Source: a virus
Reading direction: 5' to 3' (one strand)
Length of the DNA: 64,000 bases
IMG/VR virus record: IMGVR_UViG_3300046780_000427
Coordinates: 1 to 64,000 of that record
A program made the position numbers and the translations under genes. The notes under the pieces were generated by a model. It made no database searches. It was not told where the DNA came from and saw only the letters and a program-made list of their open reading frames with translations. Shown in pieces: positions 30,744 through 63,211 of the stretch. Every line of letters begins with the position of its first letter. Positions within the stretch are counted from its first letter, which is position 1.

Positions 30744-31313
30744 CTAGTAGTGCAGGCCGATCACTACGGCTGAGATGATCAGGGCGGCGCGCCAGGCCAG
30801 CTCCCCGAGGCCGCCGACCCGGCACCGCAACAGGCAGGGGAGGCCGTGGAACAGCCGCGGCCACGGCCACAGCAGCATCACCGGGTCCTCGTTGGCGAGG
30901 TCCAGGGCCAGGTGTGACCACCACCCGCACAGGACCGCACCGGCGGCCCAGAGCGGCCAGGCGGGCCACCAGGCCAGCGGGAGCACGGCGAGTGAGGCGA
31001 ACAGGGCACCGCCGGCGAGGGAGTGGCAGGGGCCCCTGCGGTGGGTGCCCCACCGGGACACCACCCACGCGACCCGGAACTTGACCGGGTGGGCTTTCCT
31101 GTTGGGCATGACCCGGACGGAGTACCAGGCGGCTTTGCGGCGGCGGGCCTTCTTGCGGCGGGACCAGGTGCCGAGGTTGTCGATGTCGGGGAGCGGGCCG
31201 GCCCAGGCGGCGATCGCCGCACCAGCGAACAGGACCACCGCAGCGGGCTGGGTGAGGGCGCACAGGGCGCCCCAGGCTGCTATGCCGCCGGCCATGTGGG
31301 TGGTGTGCTTCAT
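30744..31313 (-). CDS. membrane-bound metal-dependent hydrolase (YdjM/LexA-binding family)
   Basis: TH, LPDID, HRRGPCHSL, GWWSHLALD. Confidence 0.8.
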   Translation of the reverse strand: MKHTTHMAGGIAAWGALCALTQPAAVVLFAGAAIAAWAGPLPDIDNLGTWSRRKKARRRKAAWYSVRVMPNRKAHPVKFRVAWVVSRWGTHRRGPCHSLAGGALFASLAVLPLAWWPAWPLWAAGAVLCGWWSHLALDLANEDPVMLLWPWPRLFHGLPCLLRCRVGGLGELAWRAALIISAVVIGLHY

Positions 31314-31999
31314 GGCGCGGTCTCGATCCACCGGAACCACGGCGACCCGATCGCTGGTGCCGGGGTGTCCAGGAGCCCCTGGGTGAGGCGCAGGTTGCCG
31401 GCCTCCACCGAGTCGGCCCAGTCGTGCCGGTACTGGTAGAGGGGGCGGGGGATGCGGGCCTGCGTCCAGTCCTGCGGGTGGGCTTCGAGGACCTGCTTGC
31501 GCCAGGCCCGGTCCTCAGGCCACCCGCCGTCCAGGCGGCCGAGCCGGGCCACGTCGGCGCGGAGCGGCTGGACGACGGTGAGGTCCCGGTGCATCACCGC
31601 GCCGGTCTCATGCCACCCGCCGGTGATATCCAGGACGCACCCTTCCCACATGGTCGGCTTGCCGGCCTCGGTGTAGGTCACGTCGAAGGAGACGATCTCC
31701 GGCCGCTGGCTGATCATGGCCAGGGCTGCGGAGTACACGAACTCCGGTGCGGGCCAGTCGTCGTCGTCAAAGAACGACAGGTAGTCCCCGGTGGCCGCGT
31801 CCTGGAGGTCTTGGCGGTACTCCCCGAGGGGGAGGCCGCCCCAGTTGTAGAGGCCGACCAGCTCGACCGGCGGGGCATCCGGTGGTGTCACATCGTGCCA
31901 GTTCTGCACCTGGACGGTCAGCTCCCGGATCAGGGCAGTGAACCTGGACGCGCGGGAGGCGTGGGTGGCGATGAGGATCGACCACAGCGGCCGGGTCAC
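31310..31999 (-). CDS. glycosyltransferase family 2-like
   Basis: WSILIATH, ATGDYLSFFDDDD, PEDRAW, LYQYR. Confidence 0.8.
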   Translation of the reverse strand: MTRPLWSILIATHASRASRFTALIRELTVQVQNWHDVTPPDAPPVELVGLYNWGGLPLGEYRQDLQDAATGDYLSFFDDDDWPAPEFVYSAALAMISQRPEIVSFDVTYTEAGKPTMWEGCVLDITGGWHETGAVMHRDLTVVQPLRADVARLGRLDGGWPEDRAWRKQVLEAHPQDWTQARIPRPLYQYRHDWADSVEAGNLRLTQGLLDTPAPAIGSPWFRWIETAP

Positions 32000-32202
32000 T
32001 GGCCGTCCTGGCGGAACTCGAAGGACAGGCCCCCGACGGTCTCGCTGACGCCGATGACATGGATGGCATCGATCACCCTCGGCGGCGGGTCTAGCCGGTC
32101 AGCGAGTTTGCGAAGCGCGGCCGCAGTCCCCCACCTGGCAACCCGGCAGGTGTCGGTGAGGGTCTGCCAGCAGGCGGCGGCGAGGGCGGTGATCAGGTCC
32201 AT
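31996..32202 (-). CDS. hypothetical protein
   Basis: Operonic overlaps on both sides. Confidence 0.55.
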   Translation of the reverse strand: MDLITALAAACWQTLTDTCRVARWGTAAALRKLADRLDPPPRVIDAIHVIGVSETVGGLSFEFRQDGQ

Positions 32203-32774
32203 ATGATCCCCAGGCCATAGAACCCGGGCCCGGACTGCCGGTTGCGCCAGGCGTGCCCGGTGCGCTCACAGTAGGTGTCCAGGGCCTCAGCGACCGGCCC
32301 GCCCGGCGCGGGCAGGGACACGTCGCCTTCGTCCCACTGGGTGTCGTGGCAGGCGATCAGCCCGCCACGACGCATCCTCGGCCCGTAGCAGGCCAGCTCT
32401 TTGAGGGTCTGTTCGTAGGCATGGCTGGTGTCGATGAACAACAGGTCGATGGACGGTGGCACGAACGCCTGCGCCTGGGCGGACACCGAGTCGCATTGGG
32501 CGAACGACCAGGCGGGATCGGAATGCCAGGCCAGCGGCACGTCGGGCGGGTTGGTGTCCACCGACCACAGGTGCCCGTGGGAGAGGCCCGCGCCGGCGAG
32601 CAGCGCGGCGGTGCTGTTCCCGGCGCGCACCCCCAGCTCGACCAGGAACCTGCGGCGGGTTGCCTGGGTGAGGAGGTAGGGCAGGTGGTCCTGGATGTCA
32701 GACCATTCGGCGAGGCGGGCCAGGTAGGCGTGCTCGCGGCCGCGTTGCAGGTCGGTGCAGGCGTGGGCGGTCAT
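32193..32774 (-). CDS. class I SAM methyltransferase (Methyltransf_24-like)
   Basis: VELGVRAGNST, WSVD, IDLLFIDTSHAYE, GGLIACHD. Confidence 0.85.
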   Translation of the reverse strand: MTAHACTDLQRGREHAYLARLAEWSDIQDHLPYLLTQATRRRFLVELGVRAGNSTAALLAGAGLSHGHLWSVDTNPPDVPLAWHSDPAWSFAQCDSVSAQAQAFVPPSIDLLFIDTSHAYEQTLKELACYGPRMRRGGLIACHDTQWDEGDVSLPAPGGPVAEALDTYCERTGHAWRNRQSGPGFYGLGIIWT

Positions 32775-33541
32775 CGGATCTCCTTGATTTTGTTCGCTGC
32801 GTGGGCGGGGCCGCCGGAGTCGGCCCAGTCCCGGTAGCGGTAGAACTCGGCGCCGGTCAGGCCGGCGTGTGCCGCGTCGTCATAGGTGGCGTCCCGTTCG
32901 ACGCCGAGGCCGGCGGCCCAGTGCAGGTGCTCGACGGTGACTTCCGGCCGGTAGTGCAGGCAGGCGGCGGCGGTGCCGATGTCGGCCCACACGTTGTCGA
33001 TCCAGTAATGGTCTAGACCGGGCAGGGCCATCCACCCGAGAGCGGCGGGGATAGACGCGGACATGACCGGGGCGGTGGGCAGGTTCTCACCCTGCACGCG
33101 GTCATCGCCGTAGGCGATCCCCGGCCGGCCGGTGGCCTCAATCGCGGCGATCAACTGCGTGTCCCAGCCGGCGGTGACGGGCAGGTGGTCATCCCCGAGG
33201 GACGCCAGGTACCGGGCCTGGAAACGGTAGATCCCGTCGCCTTCGGCCAGCTCGGCGGCGATGGTGTTGGTCCACCAGCCCAGCCCCCGGCGGACAGGGG
33301 AGACCTGCCTGAGGACCCGTTCGGCCAGGAACGGCATCATGGCCGCATCCTGGTCAGTGAACGGCGGGTCGAGCAGCGTCAGGTAGTCACCTAGGGCAGG
33401 GTCATCGGCATCCAGGCCGACGACCAGGCAGGTGTTCCCGGCGCAGGTTGCCTGGAGGGCGGTGATGAGCCGGGCCAGGCTGGCGGGGCGGCCACGGGTC
33501 GGGGTGATGATGGCAAGGTCCCATGGGTCGGGGCTGGTCAC
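32771..33541 (-). CDS. glycosyltransferase family 2-like
   Basis: IITPTRGRP, LDADDP, LGDDHLP, HYWIDN, VEHLH. Confidence 0.85.
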   Translation of the reverse strand: MTSPDPWDLAIITPTRGRPASLARLITALQATCAGNTCLVVGLDADDPALGDYLTLLDPPFTDQDAAMMPFLAERVLRQVSPVRRGLGWWTNTIAAELAEGDGIYRFQARYLASLGDDHLPVTAGWDTQLIAAIEATGRPGIAYGDDRVQGENLPTAPVMSASIPAALGWMALPGLDHYWIDNVWADIGTAAACLHYRPEVTVEHLHWAAGLGVERDATYDDAAHAGLTGAEFYRYRDWADSGGPAHAANKIKEIR

Positions 33542-33604: not shown

Positions 33605-34120
33605 TCACTCCTCCGCAGTAGCGGAGCCGGGGACGGTGACAGGTTCACCCACCGGCACAGGCGGGGGCAGTTGCTCCCGCCAGTCCGGGCCCAGGATGGC
33701 TTCAAGGATGCCGGCGGCGACGGCGGCTGAGGCGTGGCAGGCATCGGTGAACCCGCCTGCGCTGGCCACGGTCCCGGAGGCGGGGTTCTCCGCGAACCCC
33801 GGGTTGGCGGGGTTGCCCGAGGGGAGGATGACCGCCCGCGCGGCCCAGGCGGCATCCATGCCGGTGTCGGCGGTGATGTCCCACCGCCACCCGCGCTGGA
33901 CGCAGACCCGGTCCAGGGCATCGATCGCGGTGCCCTCATCAGGGTCGGTGGGGTGGAGCAGGCCGGCGACGTAGGCGACGGCCAGGGAATGCCACACCCC
34001 CAGCGCGGCCGCTTCGGCGTCGGTGAGGACCCGGCCGGCCAGGGGCCGGGTGCCTCCGGGTTCCAGGGTCACCCCGGCACGGGCGACCTCCTCACAGGTC
34101 GGCGGGACCGGCGTGGTCAC
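33605..34120 (-). CDS. hypothetical protein
   Basis: GTG start overlapping the parB stop. Confidence 0.55.
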   Translation of the reverse strand: MTTPVPPTCEEVARAGVTLEPGGTRPLAGRVLTDAEAAALGVWHSLAVAYVAGLLHPTDPDEGTAIDALDRVCVQRGWRWDITADTGMDAAWAARAVILPSGNPANPGFAENPASGTVASAGGFTDACHASAAVAAGILEAILGPDWREQLPPPVPVGEPVTVPGSATAEE

Positions 34121-35577
34121 TTCTCCTCCGGCTGCACGGACGCGGCGATCATGCCCTGCTCCGCTTCGGACAGGACATACCCCAGTGACCCGAGCCAGGA
34201 CAGGTAGGCCCCCGTCGCCTTGTAACCCCGGGGCTTGCGCCACGCCTCGTCGTCGCAGGCCAGCTCCGCTGCGCCGAGGATCAGGCCGACGAACACGACC
34301 TGCGCCCGTTTCGGGCTGGCCTTGCCCATCACCGCCTCGACCAGGTTCGCCTGCCCGGCCAGGCGGCCGTTGTAGTCGGGCTCCTCACCCTTGATGCCGA
34401 GGAGCAGTTTCCCGGTGGCGTGGTTGCGCTCCAGCTCCCGGCGCAGACCGTGGAATCCCGCCATCACGAACATCGACAGGGCGGCGTGGAGCACGTCCGC
34501 GGGGACTGACCCGCGGGTGAGCCAGTCGGTGAGCCACTTGCGGCGCACCTCCCGCGCGGCCCGCCAGGCCCGGTTGCCGTCGATGACCTTCTTCCGCTCG
34601 GCCATCTCCCCGTCTGACATCGGCCCCGGCTGACGGGCGGTGGACCCGCCGTACCGGGACTTGTGCCCGCGCTTCTCCGGGTCGGTGCAGTAGGCCATCG
34701 CCTCCGCCTCACCTGAGGAGCGGTAGGACTCATGCACCCACGCGGCCCTGCCGGGGCAGCCGCCCTTGTCCTCCGGGGCCTGGTGGGCCTCCTCGGCCAG
34801 GGCGGTGCCGCCAGCGTCCATGAGACCGTGCAACCAGTTGCGGTGGCCGGGGTGCTCATCGGGGACGTCGATGCCCTCAGCGCGCAGCTTGGCGGTGAGT
34901 TTGGCCGCGGCACGCAGGTAGGCCATCTGCTGCTGCTGCTCGGCCAGGGCATGGTCGAACTGTTCCGGCTCCTCAGCCAGGACCTCCTCCAAGACGGCCA
35001 GGGCCTCCGGGAACTCCTCCACTGAGGCGAGGCCGGCGGCCTGGAGGAGTGTCAAGCCGTGGTTGACAGTCGCGGCCTGCGCCCGGTCGGACTTGACCAC
35101 GACACCCGCCGCCCGGACGATCGCCCTATCGACGCCGAGGGCCTTCGCGGTGGTGGCCTCGGTCATGTCGGGGAGGTCCAGGGTCGCCTGGATGGCGACG
35201 GCCCGGTCCCGTGCGGTCAGGCCCGCGCGGTGCTCGTTCTCATCCCACCTGCGGAGCACGTCATCCAGCTCCTCCGGTGTGGCGTCCTGTTCACGGGCGA
35301 CGATGAATACCGGCACCGCGTAGGCCGCCTTGGCGGCGGCGGCGCGGCGGCGGAACCCGATCCGCAACCGGACCTGCCCGTCTGGGGTGATGGTGCCGAT
35401 GCACGGGGTGGAGATCCCGTCCCGTTTCACCGAGGCCAGGAACCCGGGGGTCAGGTGCAGGGACGTGCGGTGGTTCGGCCCGTCGAGCAGGAGCGCGGGG
35501 TCTACCCACACCAGGTCCCCCGCGCCGGCGGCGGCGGCATCCTGGGTGCCGGTGGCCTGGTCGATTGTGCGGATCAT
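34117..35577 (-). CDS. parB: ParB/RepB/Spo0J family protein
   Basis: VDPALL..NHR, SVKRDGISTP, IGFRR (GxRR), ENEHRAGLT, HTH TAKALGVDRAIV; long C-terminal region of ICE/plasmid type. Confidence 0.8.
   Translation of the reverse strand: MIRTIDQATGTQDAAAAGAGDLVWVDPALLLDGPNHRTSLHLTPGFLASVKRDGISTPCIGTITPDGQVRLRIGFRRRAAAAKAAYAVPVFIVAREQDATPEELDDVLRRWDENEHRAGLTARDRAVAIQATLDLPDMTEATTAKALGVDRAIVRAAGVVVKSDRAQAATVNHGLTLLQAAGLASVEEFPEALAVLEEVLAEEPEQFDHALAEQQQQMAYLRAAAKLTAKLRAEGIDVPDEHPGHRNWLHGLMDAGGTALAEEAHQAPEDKGGCPGRAAWVHESYRSSGEAEAMAYCTDPEKRGHKSRYGGSTARQPGPMSDGEMAERKKVIDGNRAWRAAREVRRKWLTDWLTRGSVPADVLHAALSMFVMAGFHGLRRELERNHATGKLLLGIKGEEPDYNGRLAGQANLVEAVMGKASPKRAQVVFVGLILGAAELACDDEAWRKPRGYKATGAYLSWLGSLGYVLSEAEQGMIAASVQPEEK
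35050..35068. promoter_or_regulatory. TGTCAA-N7-TTGACA palindrome, copy 4 (inside parB)
   Basis: tgtcaa gccgtgg ttgaca. Confidence 0.85.
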
Positions 35578-51243: not shown

Positions 51244-51527
51244 GCGGCATCGTGTGGCCCTCGGAGGTGTACCGGGCAGTCATCGCAGACGCCCGGGATG
51301 CGCTCCGTGACGCGGAGGAGGACCGGGACAGGTGGCAGGTGCACGCCCAGGCTGACCACGCCGCCTTGGGCCGCGCCTGGTCCTGCATCGGCTCCTGGAT
51401 GGAGGTCGCCGGCAGGTGGCCTGATGACCTCGGCCTCACCGCCACCGGGCTGCACCCGCCGACCCTGCGGGCCTGCACGGCCGCGCTACAGGCCCGCATC
51501 ATCGAGCAGGAGGAGTCCGATGACTAA
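51240..51527 (+). CDS. hypothetical protein
   Basis: ATGA coupling. Confidence 0.55.
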   Translation: MSGIVWPSEVYRAVIADARDALRDAEEDRDRWQVHAQADHAALGRAWSCIGSWMEVAGRWPDDLGLTATGLHPPTLRACTAALQARIIEQEESDD

Positions 51528-51924
51528 CCCCGCAGACCTGGCAGAGATCACCCGCCGCCACGGCCGCCAGCACACCACGAACCCGCGTCAGGACTACTGC
51601 CCTGCTGACAACCAGGACTGGCCCTGCGACGTGGCCCGCCTCCTGGAGGCACTGGAGTCCTCCCGCGGGGACGGCGCGGCGCTGGCAGCGGCCACGTGGT
51701 CAGGGATCGAAGCCGCTGAGGCCGCGCTGGCCGTGGCCGCTGATGTCCTCAACCGGGTCAAACTGGCAGCAGGGCCGACGATGGAACTGGACCCCGAGGG
51801 CAAGACCCTCGGCTTGCACAACGCCGGGGCCTGCTCGACGTGCCGCCTGACCCACACCCTGACCGGAGCCGGGGAGCTGAACATGGCGATCCTGGCCGCC
51901 CGAGCACAAGGAGGAGATCACTGA
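51520..51924 (+). CDS. hypothetical protein
   Basis: YCPADNQDWPCD motif; RBS. Confidence 0.6.
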   Translation: MTNPADLAEITRRHGRQHTTNPRQDYCPADNQDWPCDVARLLEALESSRGDGAALAAATWSGIEAAEAALAVAADVLNRVKLAAGPTMELDPEGKTLGLHNAGACSTCRLTHTLTGAGELNMAILAARAQGGDH

Positions 51925-52250
51925 TGCCCGCTGAGGATGGCCTGCTGTGGCCTGAGGAGGTCGCCGCGAAGGCCGGATGGACCGCGAAGACGCTCCGCGC
52001 GCAGGTCGCCGCGTCCAAGAAACTCCAGGAGGCCGGCACCCTGGGCCCCCATCACCTGCCGATGCCCGCCGACCGCAGGCTCCGCCCCCATGACCGGACC
52101 CCGGCGAACCCGACCGGGAAGGGCGCCAAGTGGCAGAACCTATGGCGGCCCGGGGACATCGAGGCGTGGCTGCCGAACCGCCGCAGGCCGGGGAACCCGG
52201 ACGGGTTCGCCGCCTCACACGCTGCCGCCCGGGCCCGCCGTGGCAGCTAA
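51924..52250 (+). CDS. AlpA/excisionase-like HTH DNA-binding protein
   Basis: LLWPEEVAAKAGWTAKTLR...LPMP...LWRPGDIEAW. Confidence 0.65.
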   Translation: MPAEDGLLWPEEVAAKAGWTAKTLRAQVAASKKLQEAGTLGPHHLPMPADRRLRPHDRTPANPTGKGAKWQNLWRPGDIEAWLPNRRRPGNPDGFAASHAAARARRGS

Positions 52251-52383
52251 CCTGGCCTGCGCGCATCTGCACTGCACCTACTGTGAGGCGCCGCTGCGGC
52301 GGGATGGGTCCTGCTGCGGCGAACCCCATGACCTGCCCTACCGTGAACGGGTAACAGCGCCCAGGTCAGGCACAATAGGCGCC

Positions 52384-52632
52384 ATGACAACTTCCCCCGC
52401 ACCGATGACCGCCCCGGCCGGGCCGGCCTCCCAGCGGCATGTCGAAACGTCGATCACCCTCGCCAAGGGTGAGACCCTGACCGTCGCCCACCTGATCCAG
52501 CTCACCACCGACGCCGCCGCCGTGGGCCTGCCCGTGGAGGCGACTGTGCGGGTCGAGAACCGCATCAGCGGCAAACCTATGCGGCTCACCGTGGCAGGCG
52601 AGGCGCCGGTCACAGTGTCAAGGCATGATTGA
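52384..52632 (+). CDS. hypothetical protein
   Basis: Short ORF whose stop codon lies within palindrome copy 7. Confidence 0.5.
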   Translation: MTTSPAPMTAPAGPASQRHVETSITLAKGETLTVAHLIQLTTDAAAVGLPVEATVRVENRISGKPMRLTVAGEAPVTVSRHD

Positions 52633-52634
52633 CA
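52616..52634. promoter_or_regulatory. TGTCAA-N7-TTGACA palindrome, copy 7, abutting start of the DNA-modification operon
   Basis: tgtcaa ggcatga ttgaca g gtg. Confidence 0.88.
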
Positions 52635-52635
52635 G

Positions 52636-53205
52636 GTGACCGACACCCAGCCTGAGGCAGCGTTCCGGCTAGGCCCCCAGCAGTTCGACCCCGCTATACC
52701 TGTTGAGTCGATCAGCGAGCACCCCCGCAACCCGAACGAGGGCGACATCGGGGCCATCCATGAGTCGATGGGGCAGCACGGGTTCGTCGGGGCGATCATG
52801 GTTCAGCGGTCCACCGGGTATGTCCTGGACGGCAACCACACCTACCGGACTGCTGTCGCGAAGGGTGCCCTGACCCTGCCCGGGTTCTGGCTTGACGTGG
52901 ATGATGATGAGGCCCTGCGGATCCTCATGGATATCAACCACACCGCCCGCCTCGGCCGCGACGACCTGGCCCTGGCCTCCGCGCTCCTGCTGGATTTGCG
53001 CGGCCGCGGGGACCTGCCCGCGTCCTACTCCGATGACGACCTGCAGCAGATGCTTGATGACCTGTCCGGGCCGGCGGCGCCGGATGAGTTCCCCGAGTAC
53101 GGCGACGACATCAGCACCGAGCACGAATGCCCCCGCTGCGGGTACGCCTTTAGCGGTGGCACTAAGCGGCCTGTGGGCGCTGAGGACGCCGGCGCGGGCC
53201 CATGA
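52636..53205 (+). CDS. ParB/Srx N-terminal-like domain protein with C-terminal CPxCG Zn ribbon
   Basis: HPRNPN.GD, SMGQHGF, VLDGNH, HECPRCGY. Confidence 0.8.
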   Translation: MTDTQPEAAFRLGPQQFDPAIPVESISEHPRNPNEGDIGAIHESMGQHGFVGAIMVQRSTGYVLDGNHTYRTAVAKGALTLPGFWLDVDDDEALRILMDINHTARLGRDDLALASALLLDLRGRGDLPASYSDDDLQQMLDDLSGPAAPDEFPEYGDDISTEHECPRCGYAFSGGTKRPVGAEDAGAGP

Positions 53206-54698
53206 CCCGGGTGCTCCTGCGCCTGCACCACCACGGCCAGGATTACCGTTGGGCTGATGTGACCGACCGGCCGATGCCGACGATCAACACTATCGGGATC
53301 AGCGACCTCGGCAGCACAGGCCCGGATGGCATCATGATCGCGCCCACCCTGGGAGGCCCCGTGCCCGTAGTCGACAAACCGCCGTACCGGGTCCCGGGCA
53401 TGGGAGAGATCCGGGCCCTGGAGTGGAACGGGTTTACCGCCGCGTCCACGTTCTCGGGGTGCGGCGGCGGGTGCCTGGGCCTGGAGATGGCCGGCTACCG
53501 GATCGGGTGGGCAAGCGAGTTCATCCCCGCCGCCGCTGACACCTACGCCGCGAACCACCCTGGCGTGCACCTGGACACCAGGGACATCCGGCAGGTTGAC
53601 CCGCAGGAGGTCCTGGACATCATGGGCCTGAAGGTGGGGGAGCTGGCCCTGCTCGAGGGGTCGCCGCCGTGCGCCGCGTTCTCCACCGCCGGGGTCAGGT
53701 CGGCGGGGTGGAATCAGCCGCGGAAATATTCGGACACGGTGCAGCGCACTGATGACCTGTTCGGGGAGTACTGCCGGATGATTGAGGGCCTGCGCCCGGC
53801 CGTGTTCACCGCCGAGAACGTCTCCGGCTTGGTCAAGGGTGTGGCGAAGGGGTATTTCAAGGAGATCCTGGCCCGGATGAAAGCCGCCGGCTACCAGGTG
53901 CAGGCCCGACTGTTGGACGCTTCGTGGCTGGGGGTGCCGCAGGCGAGGCAGCGGATCTTTTTCGTCGGCGTCCGCGAGGACCTGGGTATGGCCCCGGCCT
54001 ACCCCAAGCCGCTCCCCTACCGGTATTCGGTGCGGGATGCGTTGCCGCACATCCTCGCCCAGGGCGCCAATACCGAGTTCGGTCAGGCAGCCTGGGAGGA
54101 CGGGTCCCGGCCCTCGGGGAGCCTGGGCGCGGACCCGTCCACCGGTAATGGGCTGTCGCCGCCTGGGCATGTGCTCGAAGTCGCGGAGATCATCACCCAG
54201 CGGGGGCCCAAGGAAGAGCCGCAGTACTCCGCTGGGGACATCACTGACCGGCCCGCGCCGGCGGTCTTGGAGCGGAACGGGAACTATCAGGTCGCCGGCC
54301 CGACTGGGGTCACGCATGACCCGGAGACCGGCGCGGACATCACCATCGGCCGGTATGCCATCGGGAAGGAATGGCTGCGCCTGGCCGAGGGGCAGAAGTC
54401 GGGCCGTTACCAGCAGCTATGGCGTCCCGATGATGGCCGGCCCGTGCCGACGCTGACCGCCCGCGCCGGCGCCGAGGGCGTCGCCGGGGTGATGCACTGG
54501 GCGGAATGCCGCAAGCTCACGTTGGGGGAGCTGCGGGCCCTGTGCGGGTTCCCCCCGGACTTTGTCCTCACCGGGTCCTATAAGCAACGGTGGGAACGGC
54601 TCGGCCGGGCGGTGCCGCCGGTGATGATGGCGCACCTGGCCGCAGCGATCCGGGACCAGATCCTGGTCCCGCTCCGCGCGGATGGGAGGATCGGGTAA
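53202..54698 (+). CDS. C5 cytosine DNA methyltransferase homolog, predicted carboxymethyltransferase
   Basis: Motif I FSGCGG, IV GSPPC, VI ENV, VIII QARQRIF, IX ELRALCGFP, X LGRAVPP (canonical GNAV). Confidence 0.9.
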   Translation: MTRVLLRLHHHGQDYRWADVTDRPMPTINTIGISDLGSTGPDGIMIAPTLGGPVPVVDKPPYRVPGMGEIRALEWNGFTAASTFSGCGGGCLGLEMAGYRIGWASEFIPAAADTYAANHPGVHLDTRDIRQVDPQEVLDIMGLKVGELALLEGSPPCAAFSTAGVRSAGWNQPRKYSDTVQRTDDLFGEYCRMIEGLRPAVFTAENVSGLVKGVAKGYFKEILARMKAAGYQVQARLLDASWLGVPQARQRIFFVGVREDLGMAPAYPKPLPYRYSVRDALPHILAQGANTEFGQAAWEDGSRPSGSLGADPSTGNGLSPPGHVLEVAEIITQRGPKEEPQYSAGDITDRPAPAVLERNGNYQVAGPTGVTHDPETGADITIGRYAIGKEWLRLAEGQKSGRYQQLWRPDDGRPVPTLTARAGAEGVAGVMHWAECRKLTLGELRALCGFPPDFVLTGSYKQRWERLGRAVPPVMMAHLAAAIRDQILVPLRADGRIG

Positions 54699-56099
54699 GT
54701 GTGCGGCATCCTCGCCGCGGCCGCCCAGGTGGACCTGTGGCTGGCCCTCGGCAGCCTGGAGCACCGCGGCCCCGACGCGCAGGCGTGGCAGGAGCATGCC
54801 GGGGTCTCACTCGGGCAGACCCGGCTGGCTATCCAGGACCTCGCCCCGGCCGGCGGCGGCCTGTTCACGGCGGGCCCGGTGGTCTGCGCCTACAACGGGG
54901 AGCTGTTCAACGGCCCGGAGGTCCGGAGCCTGGTCGAGGCTGCCCGCCCGGGCTACGTGTGGCACACCCACGGGGACACGGAGACCGTCACCGCCGCCCT
55001 CGGCGTCCTGCACCCGCAGGACGCCCTCGCCGCCTTCGACGGCATGTTCGCCGTCGCCTGGGCTGACACCCGGCACCCGGGGGTCCTGTTCTGCGCGAGG
55101 GACAGGTTCGGGGAGATCCCCCTGCACATCCACCGGCACATCCCGGCGCTGGTCGCCTCAGAGATCAAAGCGTTCGCCGCGCTTGGCCGCAGGTGCGGCG
55201 ACGCGGTGATGGAGATCCCCCCGGCGTCGGTGTGCTCGATCCGGCATGCCGGCGCGCAGGTCACCGTCTCCCGGTACCTCCCTGCCCTGCCACCGGTCCC
55301 CGCACCTCCCACGGACCCGCCCGCGGAACTGCGCCGCCGGATCCGCGCCGGGGTGACCGCCCGGCTGATCAGCGACGCCCCGATATGCACGCTGCTGTCC
55401 GGTGGGCTGGACTCCGCGGTGATCGCCTACGAGCTGGGCCTCCTGGTCCCGGGCCTGGTGGCCTACACCGCGGTCATGGACAAGCACTCCCCCGACCTCC
55501 GCGCCGCTAGGGTCTGCGCGGAGCATCTTGGGGTGGAGCTGCGTGAGGTCACCATCGACCCGCCGTCCGCCGATGACCTGGCGAACGTGGTGCGGCAGAT
55601 CGAGCAGCCGCACAAGGCGCAGGTGGAGATCGGGTGGCCGTGCCTGGCACTGGCCAGGCAGATCCGTGAGGACGGGTTCAAGGTCACCTACTCCGGGGAA
55701 GGCGCCGATGAACTGTGGGCCTCCTACGGGTTCGCCTACCACGGCGTCAAGCAGCACGGCTGGTTTGGGTACCGGTTGCGGTTGATCACCGAGCAGCACC
55801 GGAAGAATTTCCCGAGGGTCAATAAGGCGTTCATGGCCCACGCGGTGGAGGCACGGTTGCCGTGGCTGGACCCCGGTGTCGTCGGCGTGGCCCTCGCCCT
55901 CCCGGTGGGCCTGGTCCGCACCCGTGGCCGGCTCAAAGGCATCGTGGAGGACGCCTACCACGACGTACTGCCGGGCAAGATCCTGGCCCGGTCCAAACTG
56001 GCATTCCAGGACGGCCTGGGGATGAAGGAAGCCGCCGCCTCGGTGGCGGTCAAACCAAGGGAGTTCTACGGTGTCGAGTACCGCCGGGCATATAGCTGA
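54699..56099 (+). CDS. asparagine synthetase B-like amidotransferase
   Basis: N-terminal MCGI, HRGPD, YNGELFN, DGMFA, ARDRFG, LLSGGLDS, SGEGADELW, VEARLPWLD. Confidence 0.9.
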   Translation: MCGILAAAAQVDLWLALGSLEHRGPDAQAWQEHAGVSLGQTRLAIQDLAPAGGGLFTAGPVVCAYNGELFNGPEVRSLVEAARPGYVWHTHGDTETVTAALGVLHPQDALAAFDGMFAVAWADTRHPGVLFCARDRFGEIPLHIHRHIPALVASEIKAFAALGRRCGDAVMEIPPASVCSIRHAGAQVTVSRYLPALPPVPAPPTDPPAELRRRIRAGVTARLISDAPICTLLSGGLDSAVIAYELGLLVPGLVAYTAVMDKHSPDLRAARVCAEHLGVELREVTIDPPSADDLANVVRQIEQPHKAQVEIGWPCLALARQIREDGFKVTYSGEGADELWASYGFAYHGVKQHGWFGYRLRLITEQHRKNFPRVNKAFMAHAVEARLPWLDPGVVGVALALPVGLVRTRGRLKGIVEDAYHDVLPGKILARSKLAFQDGLGMKEAAASVAVKPREFYGVEYRRAYS

Positions 56100-56865
56100 A
56101 CCTGCCAGGGTCGAGGGACTGCGGGACCTGGCCCCCGATCCCAGGTCGGACCTGGCTGGCCGGTTCCCCGGCGGCGGGTGGCAGTTCACCTCCGAAGTCG
56201 CAGCGGTGTTCGATGATCATGTGCGCGCGTCGGTGCCGTTCTACGATGCGATCCAGTCGCTGATCGCGGAGCTGGCGGACTGGCTCCTCCCCGCGGGGGG
56301 CCTCCTGGCCGACCTGGGTTGCTCGACGGGGAACACTGCCGCGGCGATCCTCATGCGGCAGCCCGACCGGGGCCTGCGCGTGCACCTGTACGACGAGTCG
56401 GTGCCGATGCTGGCCAAGGCCCGGCCCATGCTCGAGGGGCTGGCACCGGGCCGCGTGGCAGCGACGATCGGCCGGCTCCCCGGTGAGGGACTGGAACACG
56501 CCGGCGCGGACCTGACGGTGGCCGCGTTCCTGCTCCAGTTCCTGCCCTGGGCGGACAGGTTCCGGCTGCTGTGCATGGCCCGGGCGGCGGCTGCGGAGAC
56601 GGGTGCGCTGATCCTCGCGGAGAAGACCCGCCCCGCTGACTCCCGGTGGGCGGAGATCGCCGCTGAGGTCTCCCACGATGTGAAGGAATCCAACGGGATC
56701 ACCGCCGGGGAGATCCGGGCCAAGGCCCGGTCGCTGCGCGGCGTCCTGCTCCCCGGCCGCCTGGACTATGTGATGGCACAGGCCGAGGAGGCCGGGTGGT
56801 GTTCCCCGGAGGTCCTGTTCCGGTGGCATTCGTGGGCAGTGATCGGCGCGTTCGCTACGCCCTGA
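56071..56865 (+). CDS. cmoA: CmoA-like carboxy-S-adenosyl-L-methionine synthase
   Basis: WQF..VAAVFDDHVRASVPFY, DLGCSTG, FLLQFL, GALILAEK, HDVKESNG...EI.AK..SL.GV follow the E. coli CmoA pattern. Confidence 0.85.
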   Translation: MSSTAGHIAEPARVEGLRDLAPDPRSDLAGRFPGGGWQFTSEVAAVFDDHVRASVPFYDAIQSLIAELADWLLPAGGLLADLGCSTGNTAAAILMRQPDRGLRVHLYDESVPMLAKARPMLEGLAPGRVAATIGRLPGEGLEHAGADLTVAAFLLQFLPWADRFRLLCMARAAAAETGALILAEKTRPADSRWAEIAAEVSHDVKESNGITAGEIRAKARSLRGVLLPGRLDYVMAQAEEAGWCSPEVLFRWHSWAVIGAFATP

Positions 56866-56886
56866 GGCTGGACACCCTCCCGCTAA

Positions 56887-56931
56887 CCCCTGCTACTGTT
56901 CACAGGTAAGCATTCCCCTGGAGAGAGGGAC
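56887..56931 (+). promoter_or_regulatory. conserved cassette leader copy 3
   Basis: cccctgcTACTGTtcacaggtaagc...ggagagagggac. Confidence 0.8.
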
Positions 56932-56938
56932 ACCTGAA

Positions 56939-57379
56939 ATGGCTGCAACCGCCACCACCACCCGCAAGGCCGGCGACGTGATCGGCGTAGACCACCCGGA
57001 CTACGACGGCCAGCGCTGGGTGATCAGCAAGGCCGGCCCCGCCAACTACTCCTGCCGCCCCGAGGGCGACCCGCAGGCCCGCGGCCTCCGGGTCCCGCAC
57101 TACATGGCCACCGACCCGCCCGAGGCCGGCACCGTGTCCCGCCGGACCAACCGCCCCGCCGGCCTGCGCGTCGGCGCGTTCGTCACCGGCGCCCGTGCCC
57201 GTGGCCTCACCCCCGAGACTGTCCTGTTCGTCACCAAGGACGGCCCGGACAAGGTGACCGTGACCCTCCCCGGCGGCGACGACCTGTGCCGGCACTGGAA
57301 CCTCCCGGTCCGTGGCCTGACCGTGGTCCCGCTCAGCGTCGCCGCCGAGATGCTGTACCGGGAGCACTGCTCCGCGTGA
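56939..57379 (+). CDS. hypothetical protein (two SH3-like halves)
   Basis: Leader-driven ORF. Confidence 0.7.
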   Translation: MAATATTTRKAGDVIGVDHPDYDGQRWVISKAGPANYSCRPEGDPQARGLRVPHYMATDPPEAGTVSRRTNRPAGLRVGAFVTGARARGLTPETVLFVTKDGPDKVTVTLPGGDDLCRHWNLPVRGLTVVPLSVAAEMLYREHCSA

Positions 57380-57454
57380 CCCTGTGACTGCCCGCCCGAG
57401 CCGGCCTGCCCCGGTCCGGGCGGGTTCATGTTCCCTATGGGCAACTGTCCCTAA

Positions 57455-57497
57455 CCCCTGCTACTGTTGACACGTAAGCAACCCGGAGAGAGGGAAC
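57455..57497 (+). promoter_or_regulatory. conserved cassette leader copy 4
   Basis: cccctgcTACTGTtgacacgtaagcaacccggagagagggaac. Confidence 0.8.
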
Positions 57498-57500
57498 CCG

Positions 57501-57716
57501 ATGACTGACATGACCGAATGGAACAGGGCCTACACCGAGGCCAACACCGCCGCCCTGACCAGCTACAAGGCATATTCGCTGCCTGACCTCGCCGCCGCGA
57601 AGCGGGCCCTGTGCGACACCTCCCAGCTGGTCAACTACCCGGACCTGCCCTCACAGGGACGCCTCGACGGCACCATCGCCGCCGTTGACACCCTGATGGA
57701 GAGGATCGCCCGATGA
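57501..57716 (+). CDS. hypothetical protein
   Basis: Leader-driven ORF. Confidence 0.7.
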   Translation: MTDMTEWNRAYTEANTAALTSYKAYSLPDLAAAKRALCDTSQLVNYPDLPSQGRLDGTIAAVDTLMERIAR

Positions 57717-58030
57717 GCACGTTCACTACTGCCCCGGCGTCGAACACCCGCGTCGTCGTTGACCACGACACCTACGGCCAGTACATCGGCCAGACCGGCA
57801 CCGTTGTTGAGATCACCCCCGCGCTGGCCGCGATCAAGTCCGTTGACCTGACCGGGACCGTGTGGGTGTACCTGGACGGGCAGCGGGACTATGATGCGAC
57901 CTCCGGTTATGCCAGGTCTGAGCCGGTCGGGTTCGACCCGTCTGAGCTGGCCCCCGCCGTGACCGTTGGCACCCCGGACCTGACTACTGACACGGACCTG
58001 ATCGAGCACGCCGCCAAGACGGCCTCATGA
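57713..58030 (+). CDS. hypothetical protein
   Basis: ATGA coupling. Confidence 0.65.
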   Translation: MSTFTTAPASNTRVVVDHDTYGQYIGQTGTVVEITPALAAIKSVDLTGTVWVYLDGQRDYDATSGYARSEPVGFDPSELAPAVTVGTPDLTTDTDLIEHAAKTAS

Positions 58031-58042
58031 CCCCGAGGCCCT

Positions 58043-58085
58043 AACAGTCCTCCTGCCCCGGCATCAAGGCCGGGGCAGGGCTGTT
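58043..58085 (+). terminator. hairpin terminator candidate
   Basis: cctgccccggc atcaag gccggggcagg with flanking aacag/ctgtt. Confidence 0.55.
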
Positions 58086-58241
58086 CTGGGTAGTCGATAC
58101 CTGGCGTGCCCTTCCCGGGCCGCCATGGTGCCGCGTGGCGCTGCTGGCGCTATGCCTGGCGATACCGGGGCCGCAAGATGAGCTACTACTCATCGCCATC
58201 ACTGCTCTACTCCGCGCACGGAAGGCAAGGAAGGAAGCGGC

Positions 58242-58400
58242 ATGACGCCATATGCCAAAGCGAGGGCATTCATGCTAGGCGTGATTGAGTTTCGCCGCAC
58301 CTGGACTACGCACATTTCCGACGATTGTATTAATGCCTATGACCGCGGGCGGGAGATTGCTCATCGTCTCACGCTGCGTAGATGGGAAGACGAGTCATGA
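58242..58400 (+). CDS. small hypothetical protein (not in ORF track)
   Basis: AAGGAAGGAAG RBS; MTPYAKARAFMLGVIEFRRTWTTHISDDCINAYDRGREIAHRLTLRRWEDES. Confidence 0.6.
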   Translation: MTPYAKARAFMLGVIEFRRTWTTHISDDCINAYDRGREIAHRLTLRRWEDES

Positions 58401-58501
58401 CTCAGGAACAGATACAGGCCATTGCGGATGCCTGCCACCAACACGGCTACAACTTCGAGCTAGCACTGCGCACGGCGCAGCGTGACGGCGTACCGCTCTA
58501 A
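58397..58501 (+). CDS. 34-aa hypothetical protein
   Basis: ATGA coupling; MTQEQIQAIADACHQHGYNFELALRTAQRDGVPL. Confidence 0.45.
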   Translation: MTQEQIQAIADACHQHGYNFELALRTAQRDGVPL

Positions 58502-58557
58502 TGTCCGGGTGAGCGTGACCCTGGCCTGACCCAGGGCCTAGGACGGGCGCGGCGGGC

Positions 58558-58576
58558 TGTCAACAAACTGTTGACA
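58558..58576. promoter_or_regulatory. TGTCAA-N7-TTGACA palindrome, copy 8
   Basis: tgtcaa caaactg ttgaca. Confidence 0.88.
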
Positions 58577-58600
58577 GGAGGGATGGTCTCCCCCGCCGCG

Positions 58601-58644
58601 CCCCTGCTATTCTGAACACGTAAGCAGGACCCGGAGAGAGGGAC
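58601..58644 (+). promoter_or_regulatory. conserved cassette leader copy 5
   Basis: cccctgcTATTCTgaacacgtaagc...ggagagagggac. Confidence 0.8.
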
Positions 58645-58648
58645 CCAG

Positions 58649-58945
58649 ATGATCGACTACAGCACCACCGCAGAGATCGAATTCGGCGACCCTGAGACCA
58701 TCGAGGTCGGCCAGCTCCAGGTAGGCGACTACGTGGTGAGCATCCCGGCGCAGGGCAGGACCCGAGGCACCAACGTCCGGTCAGCGGTCAAGCAGATCAC
58801 CGAACGGCCGACCGGCTGGTACACCCAGTCCAGGCCCCGCGGCCCGAAGTTCCCGATCCCCTCGCGGGTGCTGGCGTTCCTGTCCACCGAGGACAGGTTC
58901 GACGTGGCCTGCTCCTACCAGGTGATCGTCCGCCGCCCGATCTGA
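58649..58945 (+). CDS. hypothetical protein
   Basis: Leader-driven ORF. Confidence 0.7.
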   Translation: MIDYSTTAEIEFGDPETIEVGQLQVGDYVVSIPAQGRTRGTNVRSAVKQITERPTGWYTQSRPRGPKFPIPSRVLAFLSTEDRFDVACSYQVIVRRPI

Positions 58946-62719: not shown

Positions 62720-63211
62720 ATGAGAAAGCGCACTATCGTTTTCGGGACCGCCGCTGTCGGCGTGGCCGCGCTCATCGTTATCGGTGCCGTCACGGCATCA
62801 CCGCCCCCGGCCAGCCACCGGGCACCTGCCACGCAGGCCGCCACCTCGGCTCCTGCCGCCGCCACGGTCCCGGCCGCGCCTGCCCCGCCGCAGTTCACCC
62901 CGGCGCAGCAGCAGGTCCTCGACTCCGCCGAGTCCTACCTGACGGACGGGCAAGGGTTCTCCAAGGCCAGGCTGATGGACCAGCTCACGTCCTCCTCCGG
63001 TGAGGGGTTCTCCCACCGGCTGGCCAGGTTCGCGCTCGCCCACCTTCAGGTCAACTGGAATCAGCAGGCCGTCCTGTCCGCCAAGGGATACCTGACCGAT
63101 GGGCAGGGGTTCTCCCGCTCGGGGCTGGTGCAGCAACTCGAATCGGCCTTCGGGGAGCAGTTCACCCCGGCGCAGGCCCGCCACGGTGCCGCCGTGGCGA
63201 TGCGAGGCTGA
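62720..63211 (+). CDS. Ltp-family surface protein (superinfection exclusion candidate)
   Basis: N-terminal anchor, Pro/Ala linker and two repeats: SAESYL...FSKARLMDQL...EGFS and SAKGYL...FSRSGLVQQL...EQFT. Confidence 0.8.
   Translation: MRKRTIVFGTAAVGVAALIVIGAVTASPPPASHRAPATQAATSAPAAATVPAAPAPPQFTPAQQQVLDSAESYLTDGQGFSKARLMDQLTSSSGEGFSHRLARFALAHLQVNWNQQAVLSAKGYLTDGQGFSRSGLVQQLESAFGEQFTPAQARHGAAVAMRG

Follow-up and report, generated by a model that had tools for sequence, protein, structure and literature searches.

Genes at the locus

The DNA studied here (the window) comprises the first 64 kb of a linear, 72,058-bp IMG/VR record (IMGVR_UViG_3300046780_000427; 69.8% G+C) and contains, at positions 52636–56865, four adjacent open reading frames (ORFs), one of which encodes a homologue of DNA cytosine C5 methyltransferases (MTases) with an unusual motif X. 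A sequence-only reading of this DNA had pointed to an Asn-to-Arg substitution in that motif and had taken it for the signature of a natural carboxymethyltransferase, an enzyme using carboxy-S-adenosylmethionine (Cx-SAM) as cofactor. The four ORFs and the sites of interest within the MTase homologue are the following.

52636–53205, plus strand: protein with ParB-like N-terminal domain, 189 amino acids (aa) (phrog_723 ParB-like, E 1.1e-20)
53202–54698, plus strand: homologue of CmoX-type DNA cytosine C5-carboxymethyltransferases, 498 aa (PF00145, 8yf3_A, Foldseek, TurkishDelight gp123)
53658–53684, plus strand: motif IV of the MTase homologue, G153-S-P-P-C157-A158-A-F-S, containing the catalytic Cys as part of 'SPPC', with no Gln after the Cys
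53727–53735, plus strand: Y176-S177-D178 of the MTase homologue, in the loop after motif IV, conserved among enzymes with Arg in motif X
54600–54620, plus strand: motif X of the MTase homologue, L467-G468-R469-A470-V471-P472-P473 (CTC GGC CGG GCG GTG CCG CCG)
54699–56099, plus strand: CmoY-like amide ligase of the glutamine-hydrolysing type, 466 aa (PF13537 6.7e-20, PF00733 1.2e-39)
56071–56865, plus strand: CmoA-like carboxy-SAM synthase, 264 aa (TIGR00740 E 1.5e-30, phrog_4752 E 5.7e-48)

The stop codon of the ParB-like ORF overlaps the start codon of the MTase ORF (ATGA, 53202–53205), the GTG start codon of the ligase gene lies immediately 3' of the MTase stop codon, and the GTG start codon of cmoA lies 8 nt after an AAGGGAG sequence, with an overlap of 29 nt with the end of cmoY. 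No Pfam or NCBIfam family matched the ParB-like protein. A scan of positions 51500–58700 for promoters and terminators yielded one promoter-like and two terminator-like sites, which is no more than was obtained with shuffled sequences. Judged by sequence and arrangement, the genes at 52636–56865 are coupled in translation and make up a module for DNA hypermodification of the CmoA/CmoX/CmoY kind already published.

The window genome is a metagenome assembly, with an estimated completeness of 79% for the record, so that one might regard the module genes as relics that are unexpressed or inactive in this virus. However, all four ORFs are open, their G+C content at third codon positions (GC3) of 0.84–0.91 is typical for coding DNA of the window genome, the genes are tightly coupled and the catalytic residues are conserved, and we consider this explanation hardly credible.

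Motifs of the MTase homologue

The protein encoded at 53202–54698 matches PF00145 with an E-value of 1.4e-49 and scores above the cut-off of TIGR00675 (153.7 against 100.65 bits). Motif I (F84-S-G-C-G-G-G), motif II (E106), motif III (D128), motif VI (A-E205-N-V), motif VIII (Q247-A-R-Q-R251) and motif IX (R437...E443) were located, the numbering of motifs following the usual nomenclature. The earlier statement that all other C5-MTase motifs are intact holds insofar as motifs I, II, III, IV, VI, VIII and IX are present, but it needs qualification for motif IV, which reads PPC-A158 and departs from the usual PC-Q. In motif X, the codon of R469 is CGG (54606–54608) in the frame of the ORF, and in HMMER alignments to solved structures R469 falls where M.HaeIII (iGNAVP) and DNMT1 (vGNAVPP) have the motif X Asn, confirming the Asn-to-Arg change in LGRAVPP. 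At the two positions where an ordinary 5-methylcytosine (5mC) MTase would carry GN[AS]V and PC-Q, the window protein has G-R469 and PPC-A158. The features that characterize CmoX are found instead, namely homology to C5 MTases including the catalytic motifs, the SPPC sequence (S154-P155-P156-C157), the Arg and a CmoA gene nearby. M.HhaI, M.HaeIII and DNMT1 share with the window MTase the fold and motifs I, IV (the Cys), VI (ENV) and VIII (QxRxR), and differ from it by Asn instead of Arg in motif X, by PC-Q instead of PPC-A in motif IV and by a shorter loop after motif IV, which in the window MTase contains Y-S-D.

Roughly the first 53 residues of the MTase ORF are not conserved among homologues; conservation begins with K-P-P-Y-R-V-P near residue 58, and all homologues have M67. 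An AlphaFold2 model, built with 29 homologues, had a mean predicted local distance difference test score (pLDDT) of 70.6; the blocks covering residues 451–498 reached 82–98, whereas residues 1–16 and 21–53 remained below 50. Because of the unconserved N-terminus (53202–53360) and the low confidence of the model in this part, the start of the MTase is uncertain and may lie downstream of 53202.

Similarity to the carboxymethyltransferase SpCmoX

Yang et al. (Nat Commun 2025, PMC12783734) described SpCmoX from Synechococcus phage S-B43 (PDB 8YF3) as a natural DNA cytosine C5-carboxymethyltransferase. According to these authors, Arg-350 of SpCmoX stands at the position of Asn-304 of M.HhaI and contacts the carboxymethyl group, or carboxylate, of Cx-SAM; wild-type SpCmoX accepts Cx-SAM only and not SAM, and the R350N variant accepts neither. 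Cx-SAM is reported to be supplied by a phage CmoA, and CmoY, a homologue of asparagine synthetase, to ligate glycine to the carboxylate. The SPPC sequence (S95-P-P-C98 of SpCmoX) was one of the two search criteria for CmoX in that work (PMC12783734).

A sequence search of the PDB placed 8yf3_A first for the window MTase (E 8.9e-56), with R469 opposite R350 of this structure (LGRAVPP against VGRMVPP, HMMER). When the AlphaFold2 model was compared with known structures by Foldseek, 8YF3 again came first (E 6.1e-23, TM-score 0.72 over the target). M.HaeIII and M.HhaI ranked next, the latter being an enzyme for which a structural comparison had been proposed. The window MTase and SpCmoX have in common the fold, SPPC, the motif X Arg, the Y-S-D loop (Y125-S126-D127 in SpCmoX), the lack of Gln after the Cys (PPC-S in SpCmoX) and the association of their genes with those for CmoA and an AsnB-like ligase. 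These matches support the view that the Arg marks a natural carboxymethyltransferase, and the predicted pairing of the Arg with the Cx-SAM carboxylate is the interaction published for Arg-350 of SpCmoX (PMC12783734), with which R469 aligns.

The window locus is a further member of the enzyme kind published in 2025. The idea of a natural carboxymethyltransferase is not new here, as it appeared in December 2025 (Yang et al., PMC12783734); the residue reasoning of the sequence-only reading was sound and reproduces the published result independently, which makes it a calibration case and not a discovery.

Besides their sequences, the two systems differ in several respects. The window MTase comprises 498 aa and SpCmoX 372 aa, the gene order is ParB-like-X-Y-A in the window and A-Y-X in S-B43, and the window virus is of high G+C content and actinophage-like, whereas S-B43 is a cyanophage. 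The engineered enzymes M.MpeI N374K and M.MedI N377K resemble the window MTase in having a positively charged side chain at the position of the motif X Asn, and a positive residue at this position is reported to let a C5 MTase use carboxy-SAM (PMC12015181, PMC12783734). They carry Lys, not Arg, are CG-specific laboratory mutants and, as reported, retain methylation with SAM.

The same module in Streptomyces phage TurkishDelight

Genes gp122–gp125 of the Streptomyces phage TurkishDelight (NC_073473) correspond to the four genes of the window module and are arranged in the same order. Identities between the predicted proteins amount to 28% for the ParB-like protein (gp122), 52.8% for the MTase (gp123, X), 54.7% for the ligase (gp124, Y) and 59.7% for CmoA (gp125, A), and at the DNA level the two modules are 67% identical over 75% of their length. 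The module is all that TurkishDelight and the window virus share, and no paper on TurkishDelight was found in a literature search. The window virus is a tailed phage and encodes a terminase, a portal protein, a major head protein and a tape measure protein. Identity of its terminase to actinophage terminases does not exceed 38%, those of Rhodococcus phages being nearest. Contigs with DNA of the module were present in 24 metagenome runs from soil or rhizosphere.

Co-occurrence of the motif X Arg with cmoA

Among the 120 best homologues of the window MTase, 119 have G-R in motif X (Arg-type) and one has G-N (Asn-type). The motif X Arg is a family trait and no chance substitution. As it had been proposed to examine whether Arg-type MTases co-occur with cmoA, loci were collected from viral contigs in three sets: 80 loci found with the homologue alignment (set 1), 15 loci retrieved by the pattern ER.GN[AS]VPPVMM (set 2), and 120 loci matching the Arg pattern, of which the first 80 with full flanks were used and 40 short ones were dropped (set 3). 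A further 80 loci came from bacterial genomes and metagenome-assembled genomes (MAGs). CmoA was sought with a profile built from set 1, and the ligase with the two domains of the window ligase as separate local queries.

In set 1, CmoA was encoded at 78/78 Arg-type loci and at neither of the two Asn-type loci. Within 2-kb flanks, it was detected at 77/80 Arg loci and 0/15 Asn loci, or 76/79 and 0/14 if only whole MTase ORFs were counted. When identical enzymes were counted once, viral contigs had CmoA in the retrieved flank for 120 of 122 Arg-type enzymes and for none of 12 Asn-type enzymes. At genome loci, CmoA was found beside 66/67 Arg-type and 0/8 Asn-type MTases, with five loci lacking a readable motif; for unique enzymes the counts were 65/66 and 0/8. 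The proposed co-occurrence is evident from these counts. One of the misses, locus L137, is an artefact of the flank limit, as it lies on the same contig as L030 and its cmoA is located farther downstream, and downstream flanks were short at two others (1261 bases at L125; 1902 bases at L282, which included an AsnB-like match). A ParB-like ORF stood beside 115 of the 122 unique Arg-type relatives on viral contigs.

When 115 non-redundant enzymes were placed in a tree, all 11 Asn-type rows fell into one clade (Shimodaira–Hasegawa-like approximate likelihood ratio test 98), implying a single change. As the tree is unrooted, the Asn clade may have reverted naturally to methylation or may retain the ancestral state. 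Members of this clade, which carry PPC-Q at motif IV, are found in viral contigs (L058, L079, L082–L096) and at genome loci that belong mostly to MAGs of Acidobacteriota/Terriglobia (L265, L269, L271, L277, L278, L281, L283, L287). Most of them have kept the ParB-like gene and none has cmoA in the retrieved flanks.

A separate observation concerns MAGs of Verrucomicrobiota with several ParB-like/CmoX/CmoA loci per genome (7 in JAKQDD01, 5 in JAOSKK01 and 4 in JACKPW01, among L219–L263), all of them without an AsnB-like ligase. These loci could be prophages or another mobile element.

The alternative that the window enzyme is an ordinary 5mC MTase which tolerates an Arg in motif X, with CmoA serving another purpose such as depletion of host SAM or modification of tRNA, has to be considered here. 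The catalytic C5 MTase motifs are all intact in the window protein, the engineered M.MedI-N377K, an Asn-to-Lys variant, is reported to methylate still with SAM (PMC12015181), and depletion of SAM by CmoA is raised as an open question by Yang et al. (PMC12783734). However, wild-type SpCmoX does not accept SAM according to the same authors, the Arg tracks cmoA almost perfectly with an Asn clade that is devoid of cmoA, the Gln of PC-Q is missing from the Arg-type enzymes as well, and no CmoB is encoded in the record. With these facts, an ordinary 5mC MTase is very unlikely.

Further positions that separate Arg-type from Asn-type enzymes

In an alignment of 19 Asn-type and 171 Arg-type relatives, only seven columns separated the two groups cleanly, namely those of R469, A158, S177, D178, T179, T183 and D184. 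The column of A158, which follows the catalytic Cys, is Gln in the Asn clade. Among the 171 Arg-type rows, the column of S177 is Ser in 100% and that of D178 is Asp in 91%, whereas the Asn clade has Glu and His, so that Y-S-D of the Arg-type enzymes is replaced by Y-E-H. As the Arg co-varies with cmoA and also with two or more further positions of the protein, it cannot be regarded as residue-level support that is independent of the gene neighbourhood, as had been claimed.

A search of the whole library gave 1004 cluster representatives at E ≤ 1e-30, of which 149 were listed, excluding the fragment of the window itself. Arg-type enzymes accounted for 72 of the 149 listed representatives and none of these had Gln after the catalytic Cys, the residues being Ala (47), Ser (19), Phe (2), Cys (2), Thr (1) and Val (1). 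Asn-type enzymes accounted for 57, with Gln after the Cys in 40. The other listed representatives were nine without a readable motif X, seven with PPC-E and G-D, three with PPC-D and G-L or G-M, and one with PPC-A and G-Q. A FastTree phylogeny of 136 rows, although of low resolution, indicated at least seven interchanges between Arg and Asn. Four independent contrasts of Arg against the motif IV Gln fell on well-supported branches; on average, 3.4 of these set Gln against Arg, and none paired the two (p ≥ 0.125), a result that is suggestive only.

From these alignments, PPC-A or PPC-S together with the Y-S-D loop emerges as a trait of Arg-type enzymes that is new here, beyond the Arg itself. 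The main text of PMC12783734 names no Gln or Tyr residue, and its supplements may already show residues of motif IV or the loop. An R-to-N revertant, proposed as a check on the window enzyme, has been made by others for SpCmoX, where R350N is reported to be dead with both cofactors. Since R350N is inactive with SAM as well as with Cx-SAM, the Arg is necessary but no simple switch. The missing motif IV Gln and the Y-S-D loop may explain, as a hypothesis, why R350N of SpCmoX is dead.

Other combinations of residues were seen at the same sites. PPC-E together with G-D-[ACS]-VPP is found in a small clade of close relatives (P0214, P0221, P0239, P0246, P0251, P0256, P0257; loci L299, L302–L304), PPC-D with G-L or G-M in P0209, P0255 and P0254, and PPC-A with G-Q in P0159. 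Within 2 kb of these non-Arg/Asn classes, neither cmoA nor a recognisable partner gene was detected, and no ORF at the four loci of the Asp-type pattern matched a Pfam or PHROG family. An ORF of 510 aa after the MTase of L299 was considered as a partner gene and rejected, as it looks like a non-coding frame in high-G+C DNA.

The CmoA homologue

Window CmoA matches the structure of E. coli CmoA (4gek) with an E-value of 1.1e-21. BLASTP gave identities of 29.8% to E. coli CmoA (E 1e-27) and 22.9% to the characterized SpCmoA (E 1.6e-15), window CmoA being by E-value closer to the former. In an alignment of 143 CmoX-linked CmoA rows from phages and prophages, 22 columns were at least 90% conserved, and E. 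coli CmoA is identical at 19 of these, among them W18, Y39, D62, R143, K165, K185 and K198 (E. coli numbering), all of which are present in window CmoA. The column of Arg199 of E. coli CmoA is Ala in the window protein and Glu in 62% of the CmoX-linked CmoAs, from which we draw no conclusion. In bacteria, CmoA and CmoB serve to make cmo5U in tRNA, whereas the window module lacks CmoB and its proposed acceptor is cytosine in DNA. A record-wide search detected no CmoB and only one PF00145 gene.

The CmoY-like ligase

The window ligase combines an N-terminal-nucleophile (Ntn) glutaminase domain (Cys2; GATase_7, GATase_6) with an asparagine-synthetase domain that contains SGGLDS at residue 234, and it matches E. 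coli AsnB (1ct9) with an E-value of 1.8e-34. It shares with AsnB the two-domain layout and the glutaminase residues, R42, N66-G67-E68 and D93 lying opposite R49, N74-G75-E76 and D98 of the AsnB glutamine site. The acyl substrate is aspartate in the case of AsnB and is proposed to be a DNA base in the case of the window ligase.

TurkishDelight gp124 is UniRef100_A0A7T0Q3R0, and its 54.7% identity to the window ligase extends over 466 aa. According to Yang et al. (PMC12783734), A0A7T0Q3R0 represents the 'second largest' cluster of ligases, which is uncharacterized and for which the authors predict the use of ammonia derived from glutamine. By its homology to A0A7T0Q3R0 and its glutamine-hydrolysing domain, the window ligase belongs to this glutamine-type CmoY cluster. 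SpCmoY comprises 271 aa and has no glutaminase domain; the window ligase has an additional N-terminal domain of 200 residues and matches SpCmoY with 24% identity along 173 residues (E 2.6e-5). Because of this low identity, the window ligase is not an orthologue of the glycine ligase.

Proposed pathway

In the pathway that we propose, CmoA would make carboxy-SAM from SAM and prephenate of the host. Cys157 of the CmoX homologue would attack C6 of cytosine and the carboxymethyl group of Cx-SAM would be transferred to C5, giving 5-carboxymethylcytosine, with R469 pairing with the cofactor carboxylate where methyltransferases have Asn. The AsnB-like enzyme would adenylate the carboxylate and amidate it with ammonia from glutamine, released by its own N-terminal glutaminase, and the product would be 5-carbamoylmethylcytosine. 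DNA modified in this way would be expected to resist host restriction. The chemistry of the first two steps and the ligation of glycine are reported for SpCmoA, SpCmoX and SpCmoY (PMC12783734). That window CmoA makes Cx-SAM and that the CmoX homologue carboxymethylates cytosine at C5 is probable on the strength of the homologies described, and we put this at roughly 0.8. The third step, in which the glutamine-type ligase would use ammonia as the amine and form a primary amide, is favoured by a modest margin only. A literature search for carbamoylmethylcytosine in DNA found no paper naming it, and retrieved only work on tRNA uridines or irrelevant matches.

For the third step, the competing explanation is that the module makes 5-carboxymethylcytosine and that the ligase adds another amine, for instance an amino acid or a polyamine, or that its glutaminase domain is vestigial, so that the final base would not be the simple amide. 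SpCmoY, the sole characterized CmoY, ligates glycine, and several ligase clusters with distinct active sites are described whose amines are not known (PMC12783734); moreover, the window ligase scores below the cut-offs of asparagine synthase models (222.8 against 267.1 for the equivalog TIGR01536, 202.1 against 499 for NF006949). On the other hand, the N-terminal Cys and the residues opposite the AsnB glutamine site are all kept, which would be hard to explain for an idle domain, the window ligase is only distantly related to SpCmoY, and ammonia is what Yang et al. predict for its cluster. We therefore regard a final base other than the simple amide as improbable, and the primary amide is retained as the predicted product.

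Several points weigh against the proposed pathway, in addition to the incompleteness of the assembly and the shortfall of the ligase against TIGR01536. The window MTase and SpCmoX are about 41–44% identical, and this in two conserved blocks only. The middle region of the window MTase (about residues 290–440) has no counterpart in SpCmoX and is poorly modelled, and because this region is unrelated, one cannot take the window enzyme to share the GC target of SpCmoX. Window CmoA scores below the equivalog cut-off of TIGR00740 (106.7 against 193.3 bits), although this is nevertheless its best family by far. As the Asn-type loci form one clade, the counts of Arg, Asn and cmoA are not independent and reflect one evolutionary event. 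For the glutamine-type CmoY, Yang et al. report that soluble protein was not obtained (PMC12783734). M.MpeI was not matched by the whole window MTase in a search of PDB sequences at E ≤ 0.001, nor by its C-terminal 69 residues at E ≤ 1, and it was not among the best 50 Foldseek matches of the model; the link from N374K to R469 therefore depends on the statement in PMC12783734 that Arg-350 of SpCmoX 'mirrors' the engineered N374K.

Implications

A wider proposal, to which we give slightly less than even odds, is that the window phage, TurkishDelight and the actinobacterial prophages with the module carry 5-carbamoylmethylcytosine and that cofactor choice would be encoded at no fewer than three sites (motif X, the residue after the Cys and Y-S-D). 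As part of the same tentative proposal, PPC-E with G-D and PPC-D with G-L or G-M would point to alkyl donors not yet known. The window and TurkishDelight offer concrete genes for the glutamine-type branch of CmoY, the product of which is predicted only. The Asn clade, the missing Gln of PC-Q and the Y-S-D loop provide a short list of positions for engineering the choice of cofactor, which concerns the carboxymethyltransferases used in methylome sequencing, and the further residue combinations found at these sites may hint at more cofactor classes in the MTase family.

Other genes of the window

A second, larger ParB-like protein of 486 aa is encoded far from the module at 34117–35577 on the minus strand (phrog_6218, E 1.9e-38), and no Pfam family matched it. 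At 30744–33541, also on the minus strand, genes for a YdjM-like membrane protein, two glycosyltransferase-like proteins and a Methyltransf_24 protein form a cluster that has no link to the module and that we liken to virion-glycosylation clusters of actinophages. The gene at 62720–63211 on the plus strand encodes a protein containing two Ltp-type lipoprotein repeats (PF07553, E 1.1e-25), a family known from superinfection-exclusion proteins in phages of Gram-positive hosts.

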